Source of the DNA: Candidatus Bathyarchaeota archaeon
GTDB taxonomy: Archaea; Thermoproteota; Bathyarchaeia; Bathyarchaeales; Bathycorpusculaceae
Direction of reading: 5' to 3'
Length of the DNA: 64,000 nt
Assembly (NCBI GenBank): GCA_963717465.1
Contig: OY970340.1
Span: forward strand, 1,856,001 to 1,920,000
Positions 2,881 to 63,731 of the stretch are shown in pieces. The position numbers and the translations under genes are program-made. The first letter of the stretch is position 1. Each line of letters opens with the position of its first letter. Under the pieces are notes generated by a model. That model did no database searches. It was not told the DNA's origin and worked only from the letters and a program-made list of their open reading frames with translations.

Positions 2881-3813
2881 ATGGCCAAAGTTGCTTTTAC
2901 AAGCGTCAAATCGGAACCATTCACCAACATTGCTATTAACGATGCAGTTGGGCGAGCGATAGATAAATTAGACTATAATTTTGCTAATGTTAAATCAGTG
3001 GTGATCAAGCCCAATTTGTGTTACTATTGGAATGCTTCGACTGGTGAAACAACGGATGGGCGAGTAGTCTCCGCTATTATTAATTACTTGAAAAACAAAA
3101 TTGGGGAAAATGTTAGTATTACTGTTGCTGAGGCTGATGCTTCAGCGATGAAAACCAAGTTCGCTTTCGATATTTTAGGCTATTCAGAACTATGCAAAAA
3201 GAATAATGTTAAATTGTTGAACTTAAGTGAAGGCAATATTTCCGATATGATTGCAAGAGTTAATGGAGAAAACATTACTTTGCCATTTCACCAAGATCTT
3301 TTGAATGCTGATTTAGTCATCAATGTTCCTAAATTGAAAACGCACAATTTTATCGGAATAACTTGCGCCATGAAAAACATGTTTGGTGCAATTTCTAAAC
3401 CCAGAAAGTTCAGCTATCACAAGAACATCAATAACGTAATAGTTGCGGCAAATAAAATTGCTAAATCACACATCGTTGTAGTAGACGGCTTGATTGTGCG
3501 AGGTTCTCACCCGAAAAGATTAGGCGCTATTTTGGCAGGTGACAATCCATTGTCTACTGATTTTGTGGCAGCTAAAGTTATGAGTTTTAATCCGCGAAGA
3601 GTGCCTTATTTGAGTTTAGCGGCGAGAGAGAAGCTTGGTGAAACAAGAAAGATTGGGTTAATCGAGGACGGCATTACGTTGGCTGAGGTTAAAAGGAAGT
3701 TTCCGCATTATAGTCATACAATTCACTCGATTTCTTGGGGTTTACAGTTAAAAATGCTCAGAACATACACAGCTGTTTCTGGAGATGTTCTTCCTCCATT
3801 CTTGGCAGAATAA
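2881..3813 (+). CDS. DUF362-family protein
   Basis: VVIKPNLC, INVPKLKTH, TCAMKNMFG, VVDG; ATG at 2881 directly follows the upstream stop. Confidence 0.85.
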   Translation: MAKVAFTSVKSEPFTNIAINDAVGRAIDKLDYNFANVKSVVIKPNLCYYWNASTGETTDGRVVSAIINYLKNKIGENVSITVAEADASAMKTKFAFDILGYSELCKKNNVKLLNLSEGNISDMIARVNGENITLPFHQDLLNADLVINVPKLKTHNFIGITCAMKNMFGAISKPRKFSYHKNINNVIVAANKIAKSHIVVVDGLIVRGSHPKRLGAILAGDNPLSTDFVAAKVMSFNPRRVPYLSLAAREKLGETRKIGLIEDGITLAEVKRKFPHYSHTIHSISWGLQLKMLRTYTAVSGDVLPPFLAE

Positions 3814-3932
3814 AATTAATAGCTTCTTGCTTGACCAATAATTAGAAGATCTTTTTGGTTGAATGGCTGATTGAGTGGTTTGAAACGGCTAACTTAAAAC
3901 TCGTTTATTTTGAAGTTGAAGTGAGTTAGGTC

Positions 3933-5072
3933 ATGCTTCTTCTTCTTGACAGTCTGGTTCCTGTTTGGTGCATTAGCGCTTGGTCCTGCAGTTTTTATTT
4001 ATCTTTATACACGACATAAATCTTCAGTGTCTTGGCCGACAATCGTTGATGCTAATTACAGACCTAAAGTTTCAATCGTAATTCCTACGTACAATGAACA
4101 AGAAATTATTTCTTATAAACTTGCCAATTCAAGCAGTTTATCATATCCCAAAAAGTCTGCTGGAAATAATAATTGTTGATAGTAATTCATCTGACGACAC
4201 CGTTGAAATAATAAAGAGTTTTGCGCAAGATCAGAAAGACCTGAAAATCAAAATATTGGTTGAAAACGAGCGAAAAGGAAAATCCCACGCTTTAAACTAT
4301 GCCTTGCCACATTGCACTGGAGAAGTAATTGTAATTTCAGATGCTGACTGTTTTTGGCCTACTAACATTCTTGAAGCTGCTTTGCCTTTTTTAGCTGACC
4401 CAAAAGTCGGTGCAATTGGAGGCCCGAAGAACTCTTTTTAATTCAAGACAAACTTGGGTAACACGGATGGAAGAAAGATACCTTAAATCAGCAAATTTTG
4501 TAAGAGTCGGAGAATCAAAGGCTGGGTCAACGGTTTTTTTTGAGGGCGGTTTTAGCGCTTTTAAACGAGAAGCCCTGGATGAATTTGATCCTTATGATAC
4601 TGGATCTGATGACTGCGGTTCAATAATTGGGATTATAGAAAAAAATTATCGCGCAATGCTTGTTAAGGAAGCCAATTTTTATTCAAGCTTTCCCCCATCT
4701 TTTAAAGGTAAAATCAGCATCAAACTAAGACGAATCAATCAGTTAATCAGAGTTTTTGCAAAATACCTCGATTTACTAGTAAAAGGGAAAAATAAACGGA
4801 ACAAAAAGCACTGTCATACCTAATATTATTCTTTATTTGATTTCGCCAATCGCGTTCGTTACTTTCATTTTCCTCTCAATTTACCTATTTCTATCTTTTC
4901 CTTTGTTATTGCTCTTTTTTGTCTTTCTTCTTAATACCTGCAAGTGCGCTTTTACTTTTATGAAGTATTAGAAAGCAACGTTTTGCTTTTTATCTCATTG
5001 ATTGCCGTTTCTTTCGGAAAAAAATTCTCCGTTTGGTCAAAACCAGACGACAGAGTTTGGCAAACTGCATGA
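3933..5072 (+). CDS. Membrane GT2 glycosyltransferase, split by several frameshifts
   Basis: ORFs 3946, 4094 and 4410 join: VSIVIPTYNE, IVDSNSSD, GKSHALN, SDADC; paralog of 37494..38684; ends approximate. Confidence 0.8.
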
Positions 5073-5135
5073 CGTTTTTCATTCTTGAAGATTTCGAACG
5101 AGGCAATTTAAAACTTAAAAATGGTGTGTTAATTA

Positions 5136-6014
5136 ATGAGATTCTGATGTTTTGGTCACTGTTGGTTTGTGCGTTAAGAATTCTGAAGCAACCATTGAAA
5201 ATGCAGTTAATAGTATACTCAATCAGGATTTTCCTTTTGAATTAATGGAGCTTGTCGTAGTAGACGGGTACAGCAAAGACCGGACGATATCACATAATTA
5301 AAGAATTCTTAATTCAAACTGACTTAAGAAAAAAATTCTTCTATGAAAACCTAGGATTGGGGCAAGCTAGACAAACAGTGGTAAAAAACACTACTGCACC
5401 CTACATTATTTGGGTAGACGGGGATATGGAGTTGCCCAAGAATTTCATTTCAAAACAAGTTAAGTTCATGGATGCCAATCCGAAAGTAGGTATAGGAAAA
5501 GGCAAATATGGGTTAGACAAAACAGGCAAGTTAGTTGCAAACTTGGAGAATATGGAGTTTCTGATTAATTTTCATGAAGAGGGGGAGACTGATTCGAAGT
5601 CTCTTGGAACCTCAGGTTGCATCTATAGACTTGAAGCAATCAGGCAGGCTGGCGGTTTTGACCCTAACTTTCAAAGGTGTCGGTGAGGATATGGATGCTG
5701 AGTACAGAGTACGTCAACAAGGCTGGAAACTCTGTGTCACGGATGCTGTTTTTTATGAGAAGCGCCGGGATTCTTGGCGGTCACTTTGGGATGAGTATTT
5801 TTGGCACGGTTACGGTTGGCAATCACTCCTAACCAAGAACAGAGATATGATCAACATTGTTAAACTGTTGCCTCCGATTGCATTGATTATTGAGTGCATA
5901 AGAGTTCCTAAAGCGTACCGATTGACGTATCAGAAAACGGCTTTATTGTTACCTTTTCATTATTTTTTCAAGCGAATCGCTTGGTTTCTTGGTTTCATGA
6001 AAAGCCGCATATAA
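5136..6014 (+). CDS. GT2 glycosyltransferase, frameshifted
   Basis: VTVGLCVKNSE, VVDGYSKD, WVDGD, GGFDPNF/GEDMD across frames. Confidence 0.82.
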
Positions 6015-6040
6015 CTACAACTGCTTTGGCGGTTTTTAAG

Positions 6041-6911
6041 ATGCGGTACGTTGTAACTATCGGAGTCTGTGTAAAAAATGGTTCCCACTCTATTCTTAAT
6101 GCGCTTGAAAGTGTTATGGCTCAGGATTTTCCCCATGCGCTCATAGAAGTCATAATTGTCGACGATGGAAGCATCGATAACACGCTTTCAATGGTAAAAG
6201 ATTACTCATCAAAAATGGATATGAACGTCAAAATCCTCCATTTTGATTGGCAAGGCATCGGTCAATCCAGAAACATCATAGCCAAAAACGCTGAAGGCAA
6301 ATACATTGTCTGGGTAGACAGCGACATGGTGCTTTCAAAAAGTTTTGTTCAAGAACAATATGATTTCATGGAGAAACAACTTGAAAATCGGAATAGCAAA
6401 AGGCGTGTATGGAATTCTGCCAAATGCAAATTTGGTTGCCTCACTTGAAAACATGTCGTTTGTTTCTGAAAATTCAAAGTATGAATGCGGGACTGGCGGT
6501 GCCATTTACCGAACTGAAGCCTTAAGACAAGCAGGTTACTTCGATGCGAACTTAAGGCTTGCTGGAGAGGATCATGCTGCAGCATCCAGGATTAAGGCCT
6601 GCAGGATGGCTGCTTGAACGCAGCCCAGCTGTTTTTTTTGAACAACCAAGAACTTCATGGAATAAGCTTTGGACTAAATACTATAATTGGGGTTACGGAT
6701 CTGAATAGCGCTTGTCGTCAAAACCCCAATTTAATCGTTCTCTACCAAATGATTCCGTTAGCTGGGTTTGTTGGCGGATTTAAACGTTCACTGATTGCTT
6801 ACAAGTTAACGAGGCGATAAAAAGAATTTTCTTTTACCTATCCAGTTTATTTTCAAATTAACCGCTTGGTGCCTGGGTTACATGAAAGGGTACATGCACC
6901 TACAGAACTAA
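6041..6911 (+). CDS. GT2 glycosyltransferase, frameshifted
   Basis: VTIGVCVKN, VDDGSID, WVDSD, AGED across ORFs 5981, 6345 and 6614. Confidence 0.82.
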
Positions 6912-6936
6912 AACAGAAATTAAAGAGGCAAGTGAA

Positions 6937-7714
6937 ATGATTATCTGAAACCTAATATCGATCAAAATCAAAGTGAAAAATTTCAAAACTGGTTTGAACA
7001 AAAAATTACTCTTTCAGATCCATGGTACAAGCTTATACTAAAAATGCTTAAAACAATAATGCCAAGTTTTGAAGGAAAAAGAGTTATGGAAGTCGGATGC
7101 GGGCTTGGGGTTTTTTGCATTCAAATAGCTAAAGAAAATGGTGAAGCCATAGGATTAGACATTTCAAAAAGTGCAATAATGGAAGCAAAAGACTTGTCAA
7201 GCCAATATGGCGTTAAAGATAAAGTCCAATTTGTCGTCAGTGATGCACGTTTTTTACCCTTTCAAAGACTGCTCAGAGGACTTAATTGTTTCTTCAGAAA
7301 CGCTGGAGCATATTGAAAACCATGAACAGGCTTTCCACGAATTCGCCAGGATCACTAACAATTCAGGGTACGTTTGCATCACAGTTCCAAACCTAATTAG
7401 CAGCCTGTTTTTTGAAATCGTTTTTTTTATGGTTATGGGTCAGCCTAAATACGTAAAACAGTTTCTTAATGTTGACAAAGAATACATTTTTCATTACTTT
7501 AAAGTCAAGCGCCTGGTTAACTCTGAAAAATTAAGATATTGTTGACATTCGCGGAACTGATTATGTCCATCTGCACCCCAAAATAACGAGGTTCTTCAAA
7601 CTAGGCAATGTTATCAACATGGTTTCAAGCGAGTTGGAAAATAAAAAATCTTGGCGTTTTTTTGGTGCAAACATCGGAATTATCGCTCAAGAAAAACTTG
7701 TGAAACCATTTAAA
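6937..7714 (+). CDS. Class I SAM-dependent methyltransferase, frameshifted
   Basis: VMEVGCGLG, GLDIS, DARFLPF, ETLEHI, ITVPN; ends approximate. Confidence 0.82.
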
Positions 7715-7746
7715 TTTTAACAGTTGCGATCTGGAAAAACAGAAAA

Positions 7747-8866
7747 GTGGACATTAAATATCGGGGTTTTTTCCCCAAGCCTTAGTCTTCTCGGAGGAGG
7801 AGAATTCGTTGCGATAGCTATTGCAAACGCTTTAGCTCAAAATGATTACAACGTTGGTATTTTTTACAACAAAAAAAGTGAATTCTCGGAAGATTAAGGA
7901 TTTTTATGGGGAAACCATTCATCCCTCAATTAAGAACTGTTGAGCAACCAACAGTAATATCCTCAAGAGGATTAGCTAGTTTTTACCAAGCAATATTGCG
8001 ATCCTACATAGCGAAAACAAACTGCAGCCTACTCATTGACCCGTACTCTAACTGTGTTTATCCTTGGACAAACATAAGTTACATTCATTACCCATACCTG
8101 AACCAGTATTCTTACAACAAAAAATTTCCATACATTGCAAGCCACCACCTCTTAGAAGTAGGAAGCCTTCCGTACGTTATACTTGAAAAAAACCTTGTAT
8201 CCTACGATAAAAAACTCGTCATTGCAAATAGCCACTACACCGCTGAAGAGATAAGGCAGTATTCTGGGGAACACGCTGAAGTGCTCTATCCGCCTTTCGC
8301 TTCACACATTCTAACAGCTGGCAAAACAGCATTCAAAAATCCAAATGAAAACTTGGTCGTGACAACATCCCGTTTTGAGCCGAACAAGAAGCTAGAGAGA
8401 ATTCCCCTGATAGCTTCTCAAACTGACTCAAGTATCAATTTTGCAGTGATCGGTCGATTATACCATAAAGGAACACTTGACGCTTTACAAAGCACTGTTA
8501 AAAAACTTGGCTTAACAGAGCGAGTAAAATTTTATCCAGATCTGCCCGCCCAAAACAAGATAGAATTGCTCAAGAAAGCCAAAATATACTTGCATACAAT
8601 GGTTGGAGAGCATTTTGGAATTTCCATTGTGGAAGCTTTAGCTTTAGGCTGCATCCCTATAGTTCATAATTCAGGTGGACTAAAAGAATTCGTGCCTGAT
8701 CAATACAGATACGACACAATACAGGAAGCTGCAGAGCAAAATAAATGATGCAGTCAGCGATTGGTCGCCTGAAAAAACAGAGGAAATGAAAAAAGGTTCT
8801 GAAAACTTTTCAATGTCCAATTTTTCAACCAGATTCATGGAGCTTTTCTCAAAATATTACGATTAA
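7747..8866 (+). CDS. GT4 glycosyltransferase, frameshifted at both ends
   Basis: GGGEFV N-terminus in an upstream frame; IANSHYT, RFEPNK, EHFGISIVEA. Confidence 0.85.
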
Positions 8867-19211: not shown

Positions 19212-19680
19212 TTACGTTTGTGATCCTATTATTGCAATGTTAAAGCTGAATGTTGTAATGCCTGTTATTGATGATGACACGGTTATAGTTAGTGTTGCCT
19301 CGGTTGAATTGTTAGCTGCTAAGGTTGTGTTTTCCTGATCCCACGTCAAGGTTATGAAAGAGTTAGCGTTTGATGGGGTCCAACTTGAACTTGTCATGTT
19401 TAATGTCAATGGCACTGTTCCATAATTCTTGATGTAAATGGTTACACTTGTCGAGTTGCCTGGGGCTACTGCTGGCCAACTTATTGAGGTGCAGTTTGTT
19501 GTGCATGCTGAGTTGGTATAGGCACCTACATTAACAGTTGCTATTGTTCCAAGTGTTGGTAAATTTTGGCTTGTAGTCAGCAAACCTGAGGTTAGGGCTG
19601 TAAGAATTATTGCGACAGTAACTGCGCTTATTGCTATTATTATATGGTATTTTCGTATTTTTATTTGCTGTTTCCTCCAC
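19212..19680 (-). CDS. Secreted Ser/Thr/Asn-rich beta-sandwich protein (possible fibre or surface subunit)
   Basis: Frame extends upstream to KIRKYHIIIAISAVTVAIILTALTSGLL; the GTG at 19680 is out of frame by 1; IKNYGTVPLTL; many NxS/T sequons. Confidence 0.75.
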
Positions 19681-19949
19681 TATGGTTTCCTAGTAAGTTC
19701 TGATGTATTGAATTCGAAGTCTTAAGTATTAATAAACATTATTGTCTAAGTGAATTACACATATACACTTCAAAACCTTAAAGTGTACTCAAAAGCAGAA
19801 TTTGCTAAGAACCGTGTCGTCAGTTAAACTGCCGGTCCAAGTCCGCAACTGACGAACACCTAAAACAAACTCTAAAAATGAAAAATCGAAACACTTAACA
19901 AAATCACTATTTGCATCGTATAAAAGTAAAAAAAGAGTAGTCAGCAGTT

Positions 19950-27073: not shown

Positions 27074-27246
27074 CGAATCAACGTTTTTGTAGAAGGGTGC
27101 ATTCTTTTAATACTTTATGGTTTTTTCCGATATATTGAAAATTTTCACAATGGTTCTGTTTGAAAGTTTTTTGTTGGCCAGTTAGTTGGCAGGTTGGGTT
27201 AAAACTTGATTTTTGGAAAAAGTTTTTTTTATTTTGTTTTTGGGTT

Positions 27247-27556
27247 TTAGATGAGTTCGATTGTTACGTGGACTTCTTCTGGGAACACGTATGCGCATGA
27301 TTCGTCGCATGACTCTTTCTTCTGAGTCGATGTCGATTAAGCGTTTGTGGATGCGCATTTCCCATCTGTCCCAGGTTGCTGTTCCTTCGCCTGAAGGTGC
27401 TTTTAGTACTGGAACTCTTAGTCGTTTTGTGGGTAATGGTACTGGGCCGTTGATTTTTACGCCTGTTTTCTGGGCGATACTTTTCAGTTCATTGCATACT
27501 TCTTCAAGTTTACTGTAATCTGTGCTTGTGAGGCGTATTCGTGCTTTTCTTACCAT
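27247..27556 (-). CDS. rpsJ: 30S ribosomal protein uS10 (one extra base at 27281-27283)
   Basis: [29 protein letters not shown]; removing one base restores [12 protein letters not shown] (102 aa). Confidence 0.97.
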
Positions 27557-30278: not shown

Positions 30279-30677
30279 ATGGTAAATAGTAATGAAGCAG
30301 TTGAGGATGTTAAAGTTGAGGCTGTTAAGGCTGAGTGGAAGCAGCTTTGGCGTTGTAAGGTCGATGATAAGGTTAGGGCTGAAGGTGTAGCGGCTCAGCA
30401 TTTCTCTTTGTTGTTTGTGGAGCAGGGCACTGTGGTTGCTGCTACTAGGGATTTTAAGCCTCTTGATCTTAAAGAGATTTTGAGGGCCCATGAATTTGAG
30501 AATGTTGACCGGATAATTGGGCCTCATCTTTCGGAGGGTGGTTGGACGAAGTTTGCGAAGACGGTGTTGAACAAGCAGAGTCGCGCTCGGAATGTGCCGT
30601 GTTCAGAGGTCCGCTCTGATCGTGTGAAGGGTATGCAGCAGAAAAAAGGTGGAAGAGGCTGGCTGCACACGGCGTGA
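30279..30677 (+). CDS. Conserved hypothetical protein
   Basis: GGAGG ribosome-binding site; protein-like motifs DDKVRAEG, ATRDFK, GGWTKFA, GGRGWLH. Confidence 0.75.
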   Translation: MVNSNEAVEDVKVEAVKAEWKQLWRCKVDDKVRAEGVAAQHFSLLFVEQGTVVAATRDFKPLDLKEILRAHEFENVDRIIGPHLSEGGWTKFAKTVLNKQSRARNVPCSEVRSDRVKGMQQKKGGRGWLHTA

Positions 30678-53301: not shown

Positions 53302-53538
53302 AAACTTATGCTGGGCAAGCTTGCAAAAAAGCAAAGAATACCCTAAAACTTCAACAACAATTCGTTAAAACTTAACCAAAAAATTTCCTTGATAACTTTA
53401 ACATGAACAAATTCAAAAAAATGCTCTTGTTATCTGTCCGGAGCAGGGTTTTATCGCTAGCCATTATGTCGATTCATCAATGGCCTCCAATACTCAAGTT
53501 GAAGTTATCGACGAAATCAGTTAACACTAGTGTACCAC

Positions 53539-55637
53539 ATGGAAGAAAACAAATTGCTTTCCACCAAGATGGTTTCAGAGCTGAACCACTATAGATTGTC
53601 GATTGCACTAAAATTCATCGTTATAACCATAACTGTAGTAGCATTGTACCTCCAAGACTTAAACATGATCTTCACGGGTGCTTTAACCAACGAATCAAGC
53701 TACTACATACTTGCAATCCTATTCCTCTTCGGTTACTTAATATACCGAAAAAGGAAAATGATTGCCGCCGCCATTCAAATTCCTCAAACAAGCACACGCG
53801 GATTCCAAAAATACTTCAGCACACTAGCTGGCATATCATTAAGTGCAGTCGCTATACTCTCATACTGGTATGGAAGCTACACCTTCACACCACTAGAATA
53901 TCACATGCTTACCCTGCCTTTTCTAACAGCAGGATTAATCTTAATATTATTCAACACTCAGACACTAAAACAATTACTTTTCCCCATAGCATTCCTCATA
54001 TTCCTCACACCTCCCCTTGACGAAATCCTTTACGGCACTCGGATCAACACTCGCAAACCTAAGTGCATCAGCATCAAATGCCCTTGCAAACCTGTTCGGA
54101 ATACACTCAATACTCTCTGCCAGCAACGTAGGCCCCATAATAACCCTCATCAAATCAAATCAAACAATCTTATCCTTTAACGTAACTGTGGCTTGCTCAG
54201 GAATCTACAGCATCATAGGCTTCGCAATATTTGCACTATTCATAGCCTACATCACCCGCGGTAAACTACGCAACAAATTAGCTATCCTTATCATGGGCAT
54301 TCCACTAATTATGGCACTGAACATAATTCGCATAACAACAGTTCTTGCAATAGGCTATAACTTCGGCGAAGATTTAGCACTACAAGTTTTCCATGCAATA
54401 GGCTCCACAGTGCTAATGTTTTTAGGTACACTTTTGCTGCTGGCTATAACAGAGAAAACATTCAAACAACCAAAGCCGCCACAACCTTGCCTAACATGCA
54501 ACCCGACCCAGACAAACCCAGCCGAACCATTCTGCCCCAGTTGCGGAAAACTCTTCAAACTCCCAAAAACAAAACTCAACAGAGCAGACATCGCAAAAAT
54601 CGCAGGCATCGCTATAATCGTAGTTATGCTTTTATCTATTCAAGCGCCCGTATTCGCCCTAACGCAAGGCCCAGCCCAGGTCATAACCCAAACACCATCA
54701 GGCATCCAAGTTAACACATCAAACTCCCTGCTCCCAAACATCACAGGATACACACTAAATTACCTCTACCGCGACACGCAATTTGAACAAGAATCAGGCG
54801 ATGACGCAGCACTAGTCTACTCCTATGCCTCACCTAACCCAACAACATCACCCATATGGGTAGCCATACAAATAGCCGCCAGCATAACATCCGAACACCG
54901 ATGGGAAACCTGCCTCATCAATTATCCACTCAGCCAAGGAAATCCGGCAACGGTAAACCAACTGGACCTTAGAGATATTCAAATTCAAGATAACCCTCCC
55001 TTAACGGCACGATACTTCGCCTTCCAATACAAAGACACGAACCAAACCCAAGTTATTCTCTACTGGTACGAAACAGCCACATTCAACACAAACGGCACAG
55101 CACAAACAAAAAGCGTAATGATCAGCTTAATTGTGTACCCATCGTCTAATCAAAGCATTTCAGACGCTGAGGCCCAGCTACTGCCAATTGCCAACGCCAT
55201 TAACAACTACTGGAATCCAATACAAACCTGGAGTACAATCGCATTAAGCATCAGCCAAAACGGACTTGCCTTCTCAGCAGGCGCAACCGCCATTCTTGTT
55301 CTACTCATAATCTACGCTGTATACTTAGATAGAAAAGAGAAACTTTTTCTCTTAAACCACTACCAAAAACTCTCAACACCAAACCAACTCATAATAAAAG
55401 CAGTAACCAACGCCCAAAAACAAGGAAACCCAACAACCGAAGGCATAATTACTGAGCTGCAAAAATTAACACAAACAACTGTTGATAAAACATGGCTCAC
55501 AGAAAAACTCACGGAAGCCCAAAACGCCGAACTAATCAAGCAAACACTAGCTGAACAAGAATGACGAACCCCGTATCCAATGGGAAAACCAGGTCCCTCA
55601 GAACACTAGCTTTGCCAGCAAACTTTTCCATTTCTGA
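53539..55637 (+). CDS. Exosortase/archaeosortase-family transpeptidase with fused extra domains; frameshifts near 54035 and 55550
   Basis: LLFPIAFLIFLTPP, catalytic ACSG (Cys), NIIRI (Arg), FH (His); downstream CxxC/CxxC, HRWETC and LYWY. Confidence 0.87.
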
Positions 55638-57600: not shown

Positions 57601-57735
57601 CTCGTACACAGATTCGATTATTCTTTCTGAGTTTTGGAATCGACGTTAAGGTTCATTTTTAAGAGCCACTTACTTAACCCAAAGCGTTTTCCTTCTGATA
57701 ACATCGAATCAACTCAATTAAGAGAGGTGAAAATT

Positions 57736-58074
57736 GTGAGTAAAAACCAAGCGTTAGGCGGGATTATACTCGCTGTCTGCATTATAGTAGCAGTAGGATA
57801 CATCATTTTGGTAGGTGCTCCATCATACTTGGGCCTTGACACTGCCACCGTTAGACTTGACGCCGTCCTCATTCTAGTATCCATAGCATTCATCGTCATC
57901 CTTGCCATCGGTGCATGGCTAGGCTACACGATGGCAACAACTCCACCGCCAAAACCCATAGAACCAAAACCCATAAAACAAATCACCACCGAAACAAAAA
58001 AAGAAACCGAAACAAAAAACAAAACACAAAAACAAACAGAGTCAGAAGACAAAACACAAGAATCCAAACCATAA
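57736..58074 (+). CDS. Conserved small archaeal 2-TM protein
   Basis: GAGGTGA ribosome-binding site before GTG; WLGYTMATTPPPKPIE then a charged tail. Confidence 0.8.
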   Translation: MSKNQALGGIILAVCIIVAVGYIILVGAPSYLGLDTATVRLDAVLILVSIAFIVILAIGAWLGYTMATTPPPKPIEPKPIKQITTETKKETETKNKTQKQTESEDKTQESKP

Positions 58075-58102
58075 CAAAAACCCAAACACACGCGTCTCTA
58101 CG

Positions 58103-58214
58103 AAGTTTTTCTAAAAGAAATCATTAAATTTTCGTGTCTCCAGTTATTCTGCTGTCAAGATCACGCAGCAACTGGAAACACCTAAAGCCAACTATGAGCT
58201 TTAAATACATAATT
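58103..58214 (-). repeat. Structured repeat copy A (candidate small RNA; hairpin 58134-58181)
   Basis: Aligns over ~110 bp with 59939..60053; minus-strand stem GUGUUUCCAGUU/AACUGGAGACAC. Confidence 0.8.
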
Positions 58215-58290
58215 AGCGCGTGGAAGCCTAAGAGGGAAAAATGCTATTCCTGTGTCATGGCGCCAAAACGTCGGTTCAGCGTGCATAACG

Positions 58291-58998
58291 CTAAGAGAGC
58301 TTCTTTAGCTTCTTTAAGACTTCTTCCCTTGTCCTTTCAGTGAACTCTGAGGTGACAAATGTCCCTTTCCATGAGTCCAAGAATCGTTTATCGGAAATAT
58401 CTGAAATTATAAGTTTTAGGTTCTTCACAATAATCTCAGGGTGGGCTAGAGTCTTCTTTGCCTCTTCCTTCAGATTATCGGGAATGCCATTTTTCCATAC
58501 CAGTGTAGCAATGTCTCTTATGTCGCTGGGTCTCGCAGACATTAGCTTTAGAATCAGATAATCGGTGTAATCCGGAACATACATATCGATAGTTTTTTCA
58601 GCGACGGCGATCTTCACTTTCGTGGCTTTTTGCATAAATTTTTCGGTTAAAAAGAATATCTGCTCGTCTAATCTTCCTCTTACTTCGCCTTCCATAAAAT
58701 CCATGGATATCTTGGCATTTGCCTCTAGCAGCTTTACACACCTAAGGAACCCGTAGCTACCCCGCTTCTCAAAAGCCTCAGCGCTCATGTCTTTGGATAG
58801 CATCTTTTGTATTTTATCTATGTTCCAGCCATCTGATTTCTTGAGAACAAAGTCGCAATCCCGTGTATATCGGGAAAATGACGTGAAAGCCCGAAGAGCA
58901 TAGCCACCAATCAAGACCATTTTGGGGTTTTCAAAAGAGACGGTCTTTTCTGATAGCTGATCAATGATCTTGCCGATTTCAACCTCTCTCAGGTTCAT
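58291..58998 (-). CDS. AbiEii/DUF1814-like nucleotidyltransferase toxin
   Basis: LIGGYAL..RYTRDCDF, LILKL..RPSDIRDI. Confidence 0.8.
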   Translation of the reverse strand: MNLREVEIGKIIDQLSEKTVSFENPKMVLIGGYALRAFTSFSRYTRDCDFVLKKSDGWNIDKIQKMLSKDMSAEAFEKRGSYGFLRCVKLLEANAKISMDFMEGEVRGRLDEQIFFLTEKFMQKATKVKIAVAEKTIDMYVPDYTDYLILKLMSARPSDIRDIATLVWKNGIPDNLKEEAKKTLAHPEIIVKNLKLIISDISDKRFLDSWKGTFVTSEFTERTREEVLKKLKKLS

Positions 58999-59011
58999 AA
59001 TTTCAAGGTGA

Positions 59012-59722
59012 TTAACCAAGTTCAACAACCTTCTCGACTGCTTCATCAATTTCTCTTTTCACAAAGTCATCTTCCAATTTTGTCTCTCTGTGCGGAAATT
59101 CAACCCCGCCTAACTCGCCCAACTGATGAAAACCATACTCTAAAGCCTGTTTAGCCCTAACATTTGTCTTTGAAATTCTCTTCCAATAAGATTCCTTGTA
59201 CAACCTGTCCAAACTTATCTTGTCCTTGTTCTCGTATAAGACGGCAAAGGCATCTGTGAAAGCCCATTTCTTTAAGCATTCGATTACATTCTCTTCAATA
59301 TCCTCAACAAGCAAGTTTCCAACTTTCCGATACTTGATCTTGGATGCATCTTTCGAGTATTCGACTTCAACATTCCAGCCTTTCTTTTTGGCGAATTCTT
59401 TCAACGCTTTCCCATAGGACTTGTCTTTAACTTTCAAAACATAGACATCCCTGTGAATGAAATCATTATTCCAGAAAGACGCCGCAGTCTGAGCGGAGAC
59501 GACTTTAAAATTTTTGTCTTTTTCTAAGAAATCCCAGATGTCTTTAACTTCGGCAGGAATCCAGTACCATCCCCACTTGACCCTTTCTATTGATCCTTCT
59601 TTGGCTAATTTGTTCAAGTATTCCTTGGCGTTTGGCTCAATGTTTTTTATGGAGTTAACTCTAACTAAACTTCCTTTGAAGGGCCTCAATTTCTCATTAA
59701 ACTCAGCCAAGTATTCGGGCAT
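59012..59722 (-). CDS. AbiEi-like antitoxin (N-terminal wHTH)
   Basis: YLNKLAKEGSIERVKWGWY, VSAQTAASFW; directly upstream of the nucleotidyltransferase. Confidence 0.72.
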   Translation of the reverse strand: MPEYLAEFNEKLRPFKGSLVRVNSIKNIEPNAKEYLNKLAKEGSIERVKWGWYWIPAEVKDIWDFLEKDKNFKVVSAQTAASFWNNDFIHRDVYVLKVKDKSYGKALKEFAKKKGWNVEVEYSKDASKIKYRKVGNLLVEDIEENVIECLKKWAFTDAFAVLYENKDKISLDRLYKESYWKRISKTNVRAKQALEYGFHQLGELGGVEFPHRETKLEDDFVKREIDEAVEKVVELG

Positions 59723-59726
59723 AGTT

Positions 59727-59795
59727 GTTCACCTTTTATTATTGTTTGGCAAACTACTTAAGGATATTCGTTCACCTTTTTGCATATATTGGCAA
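59727..59795 (-). promoter_or_regulatory. Two direct repeats GTTCACCTTTT-N8-TTGGCAA (candidate autoregulatory operators)
   Basis: Copies at 59727-59752 and 59770-59795, 43-bp period, flanking a TTAAG TATA-like box. Confidence 0.6.
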
Positions 59796-59806
59796 GGTCA
59801 GCCAGA

Positions 59807-59865
59807 TACGTCAACTACACGGGCGCTAACTTAAATTACGTCAACTACACGGGCGCTAACTTAAA
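59807..59865. repeat. Perfect 29-bp tandem duplication
   Basis: TACGTCAACTACACGGGCGCTAACTTAAA at 59807-59835 and 59837-59865. Confidence 0.95.
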
Positions 59866-59938
59866 CCATAACTAAAAATCTAACAAAACCGAAAAGCGCA
59901 AACCACAACAAAAACTAAAGCACACTTAACCACCGACC

Positions 59939-60053
59939 AAGTTCTCATAAAAAAGTTACATTTCATTTTTTGTATCTCCAGCCATTCCGCCGTCAAAATA
60001 CACGGCGACTGGAAACACCCAACGGAGACTCTGACCTTCAAAGACTCATAATT
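59939..60053 (-). repeat. Structured repeat copy B (candidate small RNA; hairpin 59972-60018)
   Basis: Minus-strand stem GUGUUUCCAGUC/GGCUGGAGAUAC, upper stem GCCG/CGGC. Confidence 0.8.
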
Positions 60054-60227: not shown

Positions 60228-61013
60228 TTAAATTTCAGAAAAACTTTCGTTCCAGAGACTTTTAAAGTAGAATTCACACAAAGCAAGAATGCACTTGTTG
60301 CTTGACATAAAGACTGTTGCATCAAAATTTTCTCCTGGTTTAGTGTTAATTACAGCTTGTTCTCCATCAAATATTCCAATTGTAGTTATAGGCGTTTCTT
60401 TAGTATACCTTAACTGAAAATTCCTAGAGCGAAATGCATCCTCATACACTGTATTTTTTAATTTCTCGTTCGAAAAAGATACTATAACTCTGAAATCTGC
60501 ATTCCTAGATAATGCTTCACCTAAAGCTTTCTGATAATCAAGAGGCGGCGAAACAACTTGTGCAGTAGGAATAATAGCATAAACACTTTTTCTGGCAGAT
60601 TTAATCATCTGTGCACTTTTAATGTAAAACACTTCTCTAGGAATAATGCTAATGGTAAATTCGTCAGGTTCCTTCTGCTTCCCATGTTTTTCGCCTACAT
60701 GTTGAATAAGAATAGGAATCCTTTTTTTAATTTCAGCAAGCTCCCTCATTTTACTTTGCATTAAAATCGACGTGGACGCCTCCAAAGGCGTTGCTCGATA
60801 TTTAGTCGGCTTACCAACAAGTCTCTCTACAAGTTGAAGCCCTTCAAGCTGCGCAATTATCCGGTAAACATCCGGTCTTGAAACTTTAGAAATGCTAGAA
60901 ACTTCTCTTGCAGAACTCATCTGTCGCATTAAAAGCGCCAAATATATTTTTGCTTGCGAAGTACTCAAGCCAAGATCTACAAGTGTTGATAGAGACTCGT
61001 CGTCACTAGTCAT
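60228..61013 (-). CDS. TrmB-family transcriptional regulator
   Basis: LGLSTSQAKIYLAL, VSRPDVYRI, IFDGEQ, YFKSLW. Confidence 0.88.
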   Translation of the reverse strand: MTSDDESLSTLVDLGLSTSQAKIYLALLMRQMSSAREVSSISKVSRPDVYRIIAQLEGLQLVERLVGKPTKYRATPLEASTSILMQSKMRELAEIKKRIPILIQHVGEKHGKQKEPDEFTISIIPREVFYIKSAQMIKSARKSVYAIIPTAQVVSPPLDYQKALGEALSRNADFRVIVSFSNEKLKNTVYEDAFRSRNFQLRYTKETPITTIGIFDGEQAVINTKPGENFDATVFMSSNKCILALCEFYFKSLWNESFSEI

Positions 61014-62990: not shown

Positions 62991-63050
62991 AAGTTACCAA
63001 ATGAATAACCATCATCTTTAAGCATAGTTTAGTTACCAAATAAGTAACTA
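62991..63050 (+). promoter_or_regulatory. Paired palindromic operators around a TATA box
   Basis: TAGTTAC-N7-GTAACTA (63030-63050) and imperfect AAGTTAC-N7-ATAACCA (62991-63011), with TTTAAG between them. Confidence 0.65.
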
Positions 63051-63731
63051 TGTCAGAGCCTATTCCAACGTTTGCCCAGCAGGCATATGCGATCTTGTAC
63101 AACAGGTTCGGAGACCAGCCATTAGAATCCAATTACTTGAATTGGTTCTTATCTGAAGGCATGGTTAAAAAAAACCTTGTACTTCTTAGAAAAGAGACGT
63201 TGGATTCAGAGAGTTCGTAAGGGCAGCTAAGTCTGCATAAATCCTGATCAAATCTTTAGAAGCATGGTCCAGTTCAAAGTGCCAAAATTGTTGAGTGAAG
63301 CGACGAGAAAATATGCATACACGAGAGCAAGCGCTGTTGAGGTCTGGACTGATTTCAGCTATATGCAGAGGAGTTGGGAGCACTCACCGTATTTTGTCAA
63401 AGTGTTAAAAGAAGACGAGATATTCTAGAAACAGCATTTCAGAAATCATAAAATCAATGTGTTTGTCAGAGAGGCGCACCCAGCCATAGACGAGTTTGTG
63501 GTCTTGTTTCCGCAGGAAAGATTAGAATATGAAGTTTATGAAGACATGCCCGTTGATAAATTGAACCAAGTCACGAGATTCTGTGAAAGAAACATTGAGA
63601 CCTTCGAGTATACTTTAGCTTATTTGAAGAGCAAATTCGGCGTCAAGACCAAGGCGAAGATAGATAAAAGGGTTTTAGAGGAAGCCGCCCGGGAAGAAAG
63701 CAGAAGCCAGAAAAGCAAACACACGATTTGA
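63050..63731 (+). pseudogene. Degraded AbiEi-like (wHTH) antitoxin/regulator
   Basis: MSEPIPTF..LEKRRWIQRVRKGS*..YTRASAVEVWTD; one A-run frameshift plus in-frame TAA at 63228 and TAG at 63426. Confidence 0.65.

Follow-up and report, generated by a model that had tools for sequence, protein, structure and literature searches.

A family of folded hairpin sites in surface-glycan and defence islands of one branch of Bathyarchaeia

Repetitive extragenic palindromic (REP/RAYT) and IS200/IS605 elements carry a tetranucleotide foot 5' of an imperfect hairpin, and REP sequences are dispersed genome-wide and form inverted doublets. The attC sites of integrons are defined by YAAC and GTTR cores that close a hairpin, and their size is 57–141 bp (available part of PMC5371416). 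The accessible parts of a survey of archaeal integrons (Ghaly et al. 2022, PMC9668308 and bioRxiv 10.1101/2022.02.06.479319) report attC in eight genomes of Bathyarchaeia, one of which, from the genus PALSA-986, has 14; the five annotated cassette genes listed there for the PALSA-986 attC include no toxin-antitoxin (TA) gene. Archaeal REP-like palindromes are treated in PMC12306157, as its available text indicates. In this study a stretch of 64,000 nucleotides (hereafter the window) from Candidatus Bathyarchaeota archaeon (assembly GCA_963717465.1, contig OY970340.1; G000:C1:1856001-1920000 in our numbering) was analysed for two hairpins, copies A and B, that flank an AbiE-like gene pair.

An earlier note, made from the window alone, had read these hairpins as an undescribed family of small RNAs (sRNAs) of ~55 nt with a K-loop and an ACA/AUA end or, alternatively, as recombination sites delimiting a TA cassette. 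Our analysis identified the hairpins as members of an undescribed family of folded sites that is real, covarying and restricted to one branch of Bathyarchaeia. Overall, the results suggest, with a probability of roughly 0.55, that A and B are copies of a structured DNA site that marks where gene units of surface-glycan and defence islands are exchanged and most likely brings this exchange about.

Fold, covariation and range of the family

The window genome is a single contig of 3.05 Mb. Copies A and B, spaced 1.84 kb apart, were found on the minus strand as claimed (Table 1), and none of 200 shuffles folded as well as either (z of -5.4 for A and -4.9 for B). Both U-A to C-G double changes and the one-sided purine bulge described in the earlier note are present, and the TTTAAA that it placed upstream of copy A was located at 58200-58205. 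A conserved leader ending in TTTAG stands immediately 5' of the copy A hairpin. The homology between A and B is broader than the hairpin, scores 125 against at most 48 in 200 shuffles, and takes in the last codons of the membrane-protein gene beside A. A third copy, C, was found on the same strand with a covariance model. Copies A and C close the two surface-glycan islands of the window, which by our reading of the open reading frames (ORFs) extend over 28-58 kb and ~1-19.6 kb, respectively.

A BLAST search with the 116-nt region of copy A in 401 genomes of the class returned only copy B and weak partial matches, and model searches were therefore needed. An additional sequence was found beside the closest homolog of the membrane gene, in genome G420; a model of three sequences then retrieved copy C and homologs in the genus. 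The model was rebuilt twice, and the resulting R3 rests on 97 sequences. Homologs were found with R3 in the genome, the genus and the family: 77 of 120 genomes of the genus carry the site, with 1-26 copies each, as do 42 of 151 genomes of the family, representing 26 of 70 genera. In the class sample the site occurs in 9 of 15 genomes of the family, one of five of the sister family and none of 130 others. These counts come from strict filters on samples with partly incomplete genomes, some of which belong to the training set. Most genomes have a single copy, inside a surface-glycan/exosortase island. The window genome has three clear copies, all inside the window, within 41 kb and on one strand, and one further match with an E value of 2.4.

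Metagenome contigs gave 105 pattern matches, 80 of which were scored with model R1; two were weak, and all were judged to be chance matches in GC-rich DNA, so that metagenomes were not effectively searched. Viral contigs gave 9 and 103 pattern matches (80 of the 103 were scored), and none scored with the models. The Rfam scan that the earlier note had proposed found no gathering-level match in the window and none at the sites; over eight loci it returned a single match, with an E value of 0.77, away from the site. Literature searches, which did not cover subscription journals, listed no description of the element, and nothing similar is described in the available parts of PMC6563490 and PMC12306157.

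Comparison of 208 sites revealed two forms, a long form (47 sites, like A, B and C) and a short form (161 sites), with a hairpin of 43-55 nt; the three copies of the window are old, low-copy long forms. The fixed features are a leader ending in TTTAG, a 4-bp foot, a bulged T, a stem of 7-8 bp, a one-sided AGAAT bulge, a short upper stem and a free loop. The bulged T was present in 140 of the 161 short forms and 33 of the 47 long forms, the exact AGAAT bulge in 137 of all sites, and each position of the TTAG at -4 to -1 in more than 85% of short sites. When nine sequences were aligned with MAFFT, two-sided changes were seen in 9 of 16 pairs, and pairing reached 91.5% compared with 25-61% in slid controls. 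In 75 model-fitted sequences, an alignment that leans toward the model, 14 of 16 pairs change on both sides and none of 500 shuffles reaches the covariation score.

The earlier note had also argued that some stem differences are G-U wobbles that pair on the minus strand only. Copies A and B indeed fold better on that strand, but the argument does not extend to the family, whose lower stem can form Watson-Crick pairs throughout if a T is bulged out. The long forms fold nearly equally on both strands (the modelled strand is favoured as RNA in 25 of 47), whereas short forms favour the opposite strand (the modelled strand is favoured in only 33 of 161).

The homologs have largely refuted the idea that the family consists of independent H/ACA-like guide sRNAs with a K-loop, bound by L7Ae and Cbf5, and we consider it very improbable. 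Copy A does have a formal K-loop and the upstream TTTAAA, its stem-loop-stem is similar in size to an archaeal H/ACA sRNA and ends near ACA, ACA or ATA occurs at the 3' end of 172 of 208 sites, and one-sided H/ACA-like RNAs are known in Pyrobaculum (available part of PMC4652768). However, the apical K-loop is private to copy A among the 47 long forms, and its nearest homolog, in G420, has AA in place of the second GA. A K-loop pattern matches three other long and 41 short sites; in those inspected other than A (three long and six short), the match involves the bulge, and its register would disrupt the stem. The terminal ACA, whose presence the earlier note had read correctly, is base-paired with the 5' foot in a stem that covaries. 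The equivalent of the GA stem is the 4-bp upper stem, compared with ~10 bp in productive H/ACA guides (same part of PMC4652768). No two-sided pairing above chance was found with the genome's own 16S and 23S rRNA, the longest complement being 7-8 nt (tRNA targets were not scanned). TATA-like words 18-45 nt upstream occur at 15 of 206 sites and at 18 of 206 in a control window, and copy number follows the TA arrays described below. A selenocysteine insertion (SECIS) element was considered and rejected, as the sites do not follow UGA-containing genes in the window (the ORFs end in TAG, TAA and TAA).

Low-copy sites, arrays and re-assorted flanks

Analysis of 65 low-copy loci, the three of the window included, revealed at least one of six island genes within 1.5 kb of the site in 45 loci. 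The neighbours are an Ig-like surface protein (24), a YdjM-like membrane protein (16), a small membrane gene (12), an unnamed island gene (12), a flippase (5) and an exosortase (4). Core genes farther out differ among genera. This setting leads us to infer that the site was ancestrally present once, within a conserved island block.

The YdjM-like gene often starts ~60 nt from the site, mostly divergently. It encodes a membrane metal-binding protein with invariant H, D, HR, H and D residues and was found at locus L318 (779-1438) and 15 other site loci. As a candidate enzyme it was rejected: its confident structure model is an all-helical membrane protein with no PDB match, and in the window genome it lies far from the sites.

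A rival reading is a cis-acting RNA element (leader, processing or termination signal) of surface-protein and island genes, which would be carried along with these genes in units that move by other means. Covariation cannot separate RNA from single-stranded DNA, at 17 of 65 loci the Ig-like gene comes next on the same strand, T-rich tails come after many sites, and in long forms G-U-type cells exceed A-C cells (46 versus 26). On the other hand, all four arrangements of neighbouring genes relative to the site occur (69, 59, 48 and 38), short forms fold better on the opposite strand, the sites match no Rfam family, and flanks are re-assorted at the site as shown below. We regard an RNA element of this kind as an improbable explanation.

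A set of 42 regions picked for holding matches contained 146 R3 matches, of which 144 were kept after two partial ones were dropped. These 144 array sites lie on 24 contigs of 19 genomes. Neighbouring sites less than 15 kb apart are co-oriented in 108 of 110 cases, with a median gap of 1.8 kb. TA families (PIN/VapB, AbrB, HicAB, MNT-HEPN or related) were identified in 42 of 72 units shorter than 3 kb, while four of the 72 are shorter than 320 nt. Among the other genes carried are the membrane gene, those of surface proteins, an IS66, and a D5 primase-helicase element in which no integrase was seen. Only seven of the 144 sites fall within a called ORF, and genes in the units face both ways (67 opposite and 46 same, by crude ORF calls). 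The primase-helicase element, of ~6 kb with AbrB and helix-turn-helix genes, lies between two sites in genome G425 (L263, 10342-15014) and is satellite- or plasmid-like; related genes were also seen in other arrays (L268, L274).

Comparison of the flanks of 135 short sites revealed 24 pairs that share only the 5' flank, 25 pairs that share only the 3' flank and two that share both, the latter being a tandem duplicate. Units alike from end to end make up 22 of 82 and fall into eight classes, the largest found in five genomes and one representing the tandem duplicate; whole units thereby reappear beside different neighbours. Among 339 ends of homology between genomes, 81 lie within 80 nt of a site; random placement would give 19, and 45 would be expected were every end intergenic. 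The sequence beyond the stem, from +1, goes with the downstream flank, and that from about -19 goes with the upstream flank. In genome G476 two units adjoin at a site in an order opposite to that in genome G416, which would be the outcome of loop-out and re-entry. At the level of the family, the earlier suggestion of structured sites delimiting TA cassettes is supported by the co-oriented arrays, the TA cargo and the re-assortment of flanks; it fits the AbiE pair itself less well (see below).

A selfish repeat resembling REP sequences or miniature inverted-repeat transposable elements (MITEs) is another rival reading. It would be a non-autonomous element of ~250 nt that ends in the hairpin and was spread locally by a transposase now absent, with units shuffled only as a by-product of homologous recombination between copies. 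Three gene-less site-to-site units of 244-256 nt are mutually alike (L276, 9046-9361; G416:C10, 20022-20276 and 55090-55334), and a ~190-nt stretch of theirs also precedes 23 of 89 array sites called by regular expression. The crossover position looks variable, and a bulged stem preceded by a TTAG-type foot is reminiscent of REP and IS200/IS605 ends. Such an origin is nevertheless unlikely in our view. Many genera retain one copy within a conserved gene block; the copies lie only in islands and nearly all point the same way, unlike REP doublets; Y1 transposase is absent from all four array-rich genomes searched for it; and the ~190-nt extension, which was also rejected as a structured RNA, shows covariation in none of 30 pairs.

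Known systems and the search for an enzyme

Among the closest known systems are integrons and clusters of attC sites lacking integron-integrases (CALINs). As in these, bulged-hairpin sites run in the same direction 1-2 kb apart, at least two co-oriented sites less than 4 kb apart separate small gene units, the units are rich in TA genes, and no integrase stands beside the array. Unlike attC, none of the 208 sites has the RYYYAAC...GTTRRRY frame, and the hairpin is shorter than the sizes cited above. The one tested Bathyarchaeia attC given in Data S9, in the part of PMC9668308 available, is canonical and unlike the site; the 14 PALSA-986 attC sequences were not compared. No PF00589 domain was found in the array proteins and no site at tyrosine recombinases, the IntI-specific insert not being scored separately. 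Integron cassette genes mostly have one orientation, whereas genes here face both ways. Integrons recombine as single strands at a fixed crossover base; the junction here lies within the site. The element works like an integron array but fails integron membership, having no attC frame, no IntI and mixed gene orientation.

REP/REPIN and IS200/IS605 ends share with the site the intergenic imperfect hairpin, the tetranucleotide-like foot, here TTAG before the bulged stem, and an extrahelical base. Unlike REP sequences, the sites are co-oriented singles confined to islands (only two of 110 neighbours are inverted), with one copy conserved across genera, and the cognate Y1 is missing as stated above. 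One-ended capture of adjacent genes by IS91/ISCR elements would also yield hairpin-ended units, and Y2 transposases occur in the genus. Their 1183-bp elements, however, have their own unrelated terminal hairpin and a distribution that does not track the site. These compact IS91-family elements of Bathyarchaeia, with a common short terminal hairpin, were seen at L343 (1027-2209), L345 (1027-2209) and L344; R3 had no match in three Y2 loci with filters off or in nine more with default filters.

These comparisons leave room for a more specific idea, which we hold tentatively and regard as somewhat less probable than its negation: a dedicated cassette system of one Bathyarchaeia order, built independently of integrons and using an enzyme outside all classes tested, as none of IntI, Y1, Y2, serine recombinase, reverse transcriptase, IS110 and Cas1 tracks the site. 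This enzyme would recombine a landing site of folded DNA that was ancestrally single and lay in the surface-glycan island. In one sublineage the site would have multiplied to as many as 26 per array, storing and reordering TA pairs, surface genes and a primase-helicase element without integrase. The case for novelty rests on failed membership tests for known families rather than on a mechanism.

As to how sites would exchange gene units on the main reading, the site may fold in single-stranded or cruciform DNA, and a trans-acting protein would read the fixed bulges. Strand exchange between two sites would take place from ~17 nt before the stem to a few nucleotides after it, and units would leave as loops and re-enter with their orientation unchanged. 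The enzyme may be one of host recombination or a structure-specific nuclease.

No enzyme was identified; it may be divergent or a host enzyme. No site-specific recombinase, and no PF00589 match, was found among 127 array proteins scanned (of 146 chosen from 274 clusters). The Y1 transposase of the window genome has no site near it. The common tRNA-linked integrase, present in 93 of 120 genomes, was rejected, as this query did not find it in the array-rich G425. A dif/Xer system was likewise rejected: the genome's four PF00589 matches adjoin tRNA genes, no stand-alone XerA was seen, and the GC-skew curve is flat. The cumulative GC-skew maximum of the genome lies at ~45350 of the window, a peak that may reflect the strand bias of the island.

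Several results weigh against exchange mediated by the sites. With regard to the enzyme, besides the lack of Y1, reverse transcriptase and serine resolvase were found in none of five array-rich genomes, and IS110 (two of four) and Cas1 (one of four) are patchy. Y2 transposases occur in 13 of 120 genomes of the genus, with different ends of their own, and are commonest in genomes without sites. Tyrosine recombinases are present in five of five genomes, and none of their 20 loci has a site beside it. With regard to the arrays, the flank-sharing pairs, drawn from 10 and 19 clusters, are not independent, and 258 of the 339 homology ends lie elsewhere than at sites. Many TA pairs within arrays have no site between them, and the window genome has 20 TA-family loci by the same queries but only its three sites. 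No clean empty-site pair was seen, the three triplets found being in reversed order. No fixed crossover was found, loop positions following neither flank. Adjacent sites are hardly more alike than distant ones (0.69 versus 0.68), and target-site duplication on insertion was rejected on this ground. Finally, the AbiE pair of the window fits a cassette less well: none of 18 loci with AbiEi homologs (52-92% identity) carries a site, and a clean cassette insertion would not leave a diverged duplicate of the flank as is found around B.

The AbiE pair, the window and the meaning of the sites

The AbiE-like module seen in the earlier note is well founded in its AbiEii part, whose PF08843 match scores 30.1 bits against a cut-off of 22.5 with DUF6036 likewise over its cut-off, while the AbiEi part is assigned weakly, through seven weak PADLOC matches and a top Foldseek match to the Streptococcus agalactiae AbiEi structure from a low-confidence model (pLDDT 61). 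Like AbiE type IV TA systems (PDB 6y8q for AbiEi), the pair consists of two overlapping genes, the first regulator-like and the second a nucleotidyltransferase; unlike them, it is a distant archaeal version. Since the 18 homologous loci carry no site, the pair spreads mainly by other routes. Copy B is a repeat of A with ~110 nt of A's downstream flank, followed by a 29-nt tandem duplication and then the AbiE genes, and homology to other AbiE loci begins near 59795. Because B carries this diverged copy of A's flank, a site-bounded cassette fits the AbiE pair less well. The pair is atypical cargo here and not the cause of the hairpins, and sits in an old duplication of site and flank, probably no longer mobile as a unit. 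Contigs from four of seven DNA sequencing runs covered the AbiE genes but not the sites, which favours neither side. In G420 the site and the membrane gene occur without AbiE, and the upstream neighbour is different.

Table 1. Sites, duplicated blocks and genes in the window (positions of the window)
Feature	Position	Strand	Remarks
Site copy A, long form	58134..58181	-	4-bp foot, stem, one-sided AGAAT bulge, 4-bp upper stem, loop; R3 64 bits
Site copy B, long form	59972..60018	-	two compensatory changes relative to A; R3 53 bits
Site copy C	19814..19859	-	right edge of first glycan island; ~220 nt upstream of Ig-like surface protein gene
Block around A (upstream leader, hairpin, tail, last membrane-gene codons)	58049..58214	-	repeated around B
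Diverged duplicate of A block, around B	59883..60053	-	70% identity over 172 columns
Perfect 29-nt tandem duplication	59807..59865		joint of B block and AbiE unit, just upstream of AbiE promoter region
AbiEii-like nucleotidyltransferase, putative type IV toxin	58291..59049	-	Pfam PF08843/PF19502 over cut-off; PADLOC AbiEii E 4e-5
AbiEi-like antitoxin/regulator, weak assignment	59012..59722	-	no Pfam match; best PADLOC AbiEi E 2e-4; Foldseek 6y8q E 4e-3
AbiE upstream region, two 11-nt direct repeats	59727..59780	-	possible operator
Small membrane-protein gene	57634..58074	+	one of two genome copies; ends just 3' of site A, as at 12/65 site loci
Exosortase EpsH-family gene, two overlapping ORFs	53530..55564	+	marker of island closed by site A; single ORF in G420
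Ig-like surface protein gene (choice-of-anchor D, below cut-off)	19215..19583	-	commonest site neighbour, 24/65 loci
TrmB-family regulator	60228..61013	-	upstream of site B; domain search

The island gene labels are mostly our reading of the sequences, the exosortase and DUF1616 calls coming from a Pfam-type domain search. In relatives a copy of the membrane gene adjoins a gene that we take to be ahcY. The split exosortase gene and several fragmented glycosyltransferase genes at 3810-8745 may reflect decay or assembly errors. Both glycan islands open with the same gene of 126-132 aa, followed by an Sso10a-family gene (30279-30674; G000:C1:1851120-1851497); the former has four copies in the genome and gave no family or Atlas lead. 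Small ORFs at 63050-63731, beyond site B, the first pair in two frames, resemble a further two-gene module and have no PADLOC match. Between the islands lies a gene that we label S10-like ribosomal protein (27185-27556), ~75 kb from an EF-1alpha-like gene. Elsewhere in the genome, two tRNA genes with a UCA anticodon were called tRNA-Sec (G000:C1:845695-845779 and 2829638-2829723).

If the sites mediate exchange, archaea would have a second, independently built route to gene-cassette arrays, based on a DNA site read by its structure, and the enzyme could be a new recombinase. The sites would explain the swapping of surface-glycan and defence genes in an abundant lineage of sediment and peat, and would offer a marker with which to search for hypervariable islands overlooked by attC-based tools. 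Even on the weaker readings, the family is an undescribed, strongly covarying element that is absent from Rfam.

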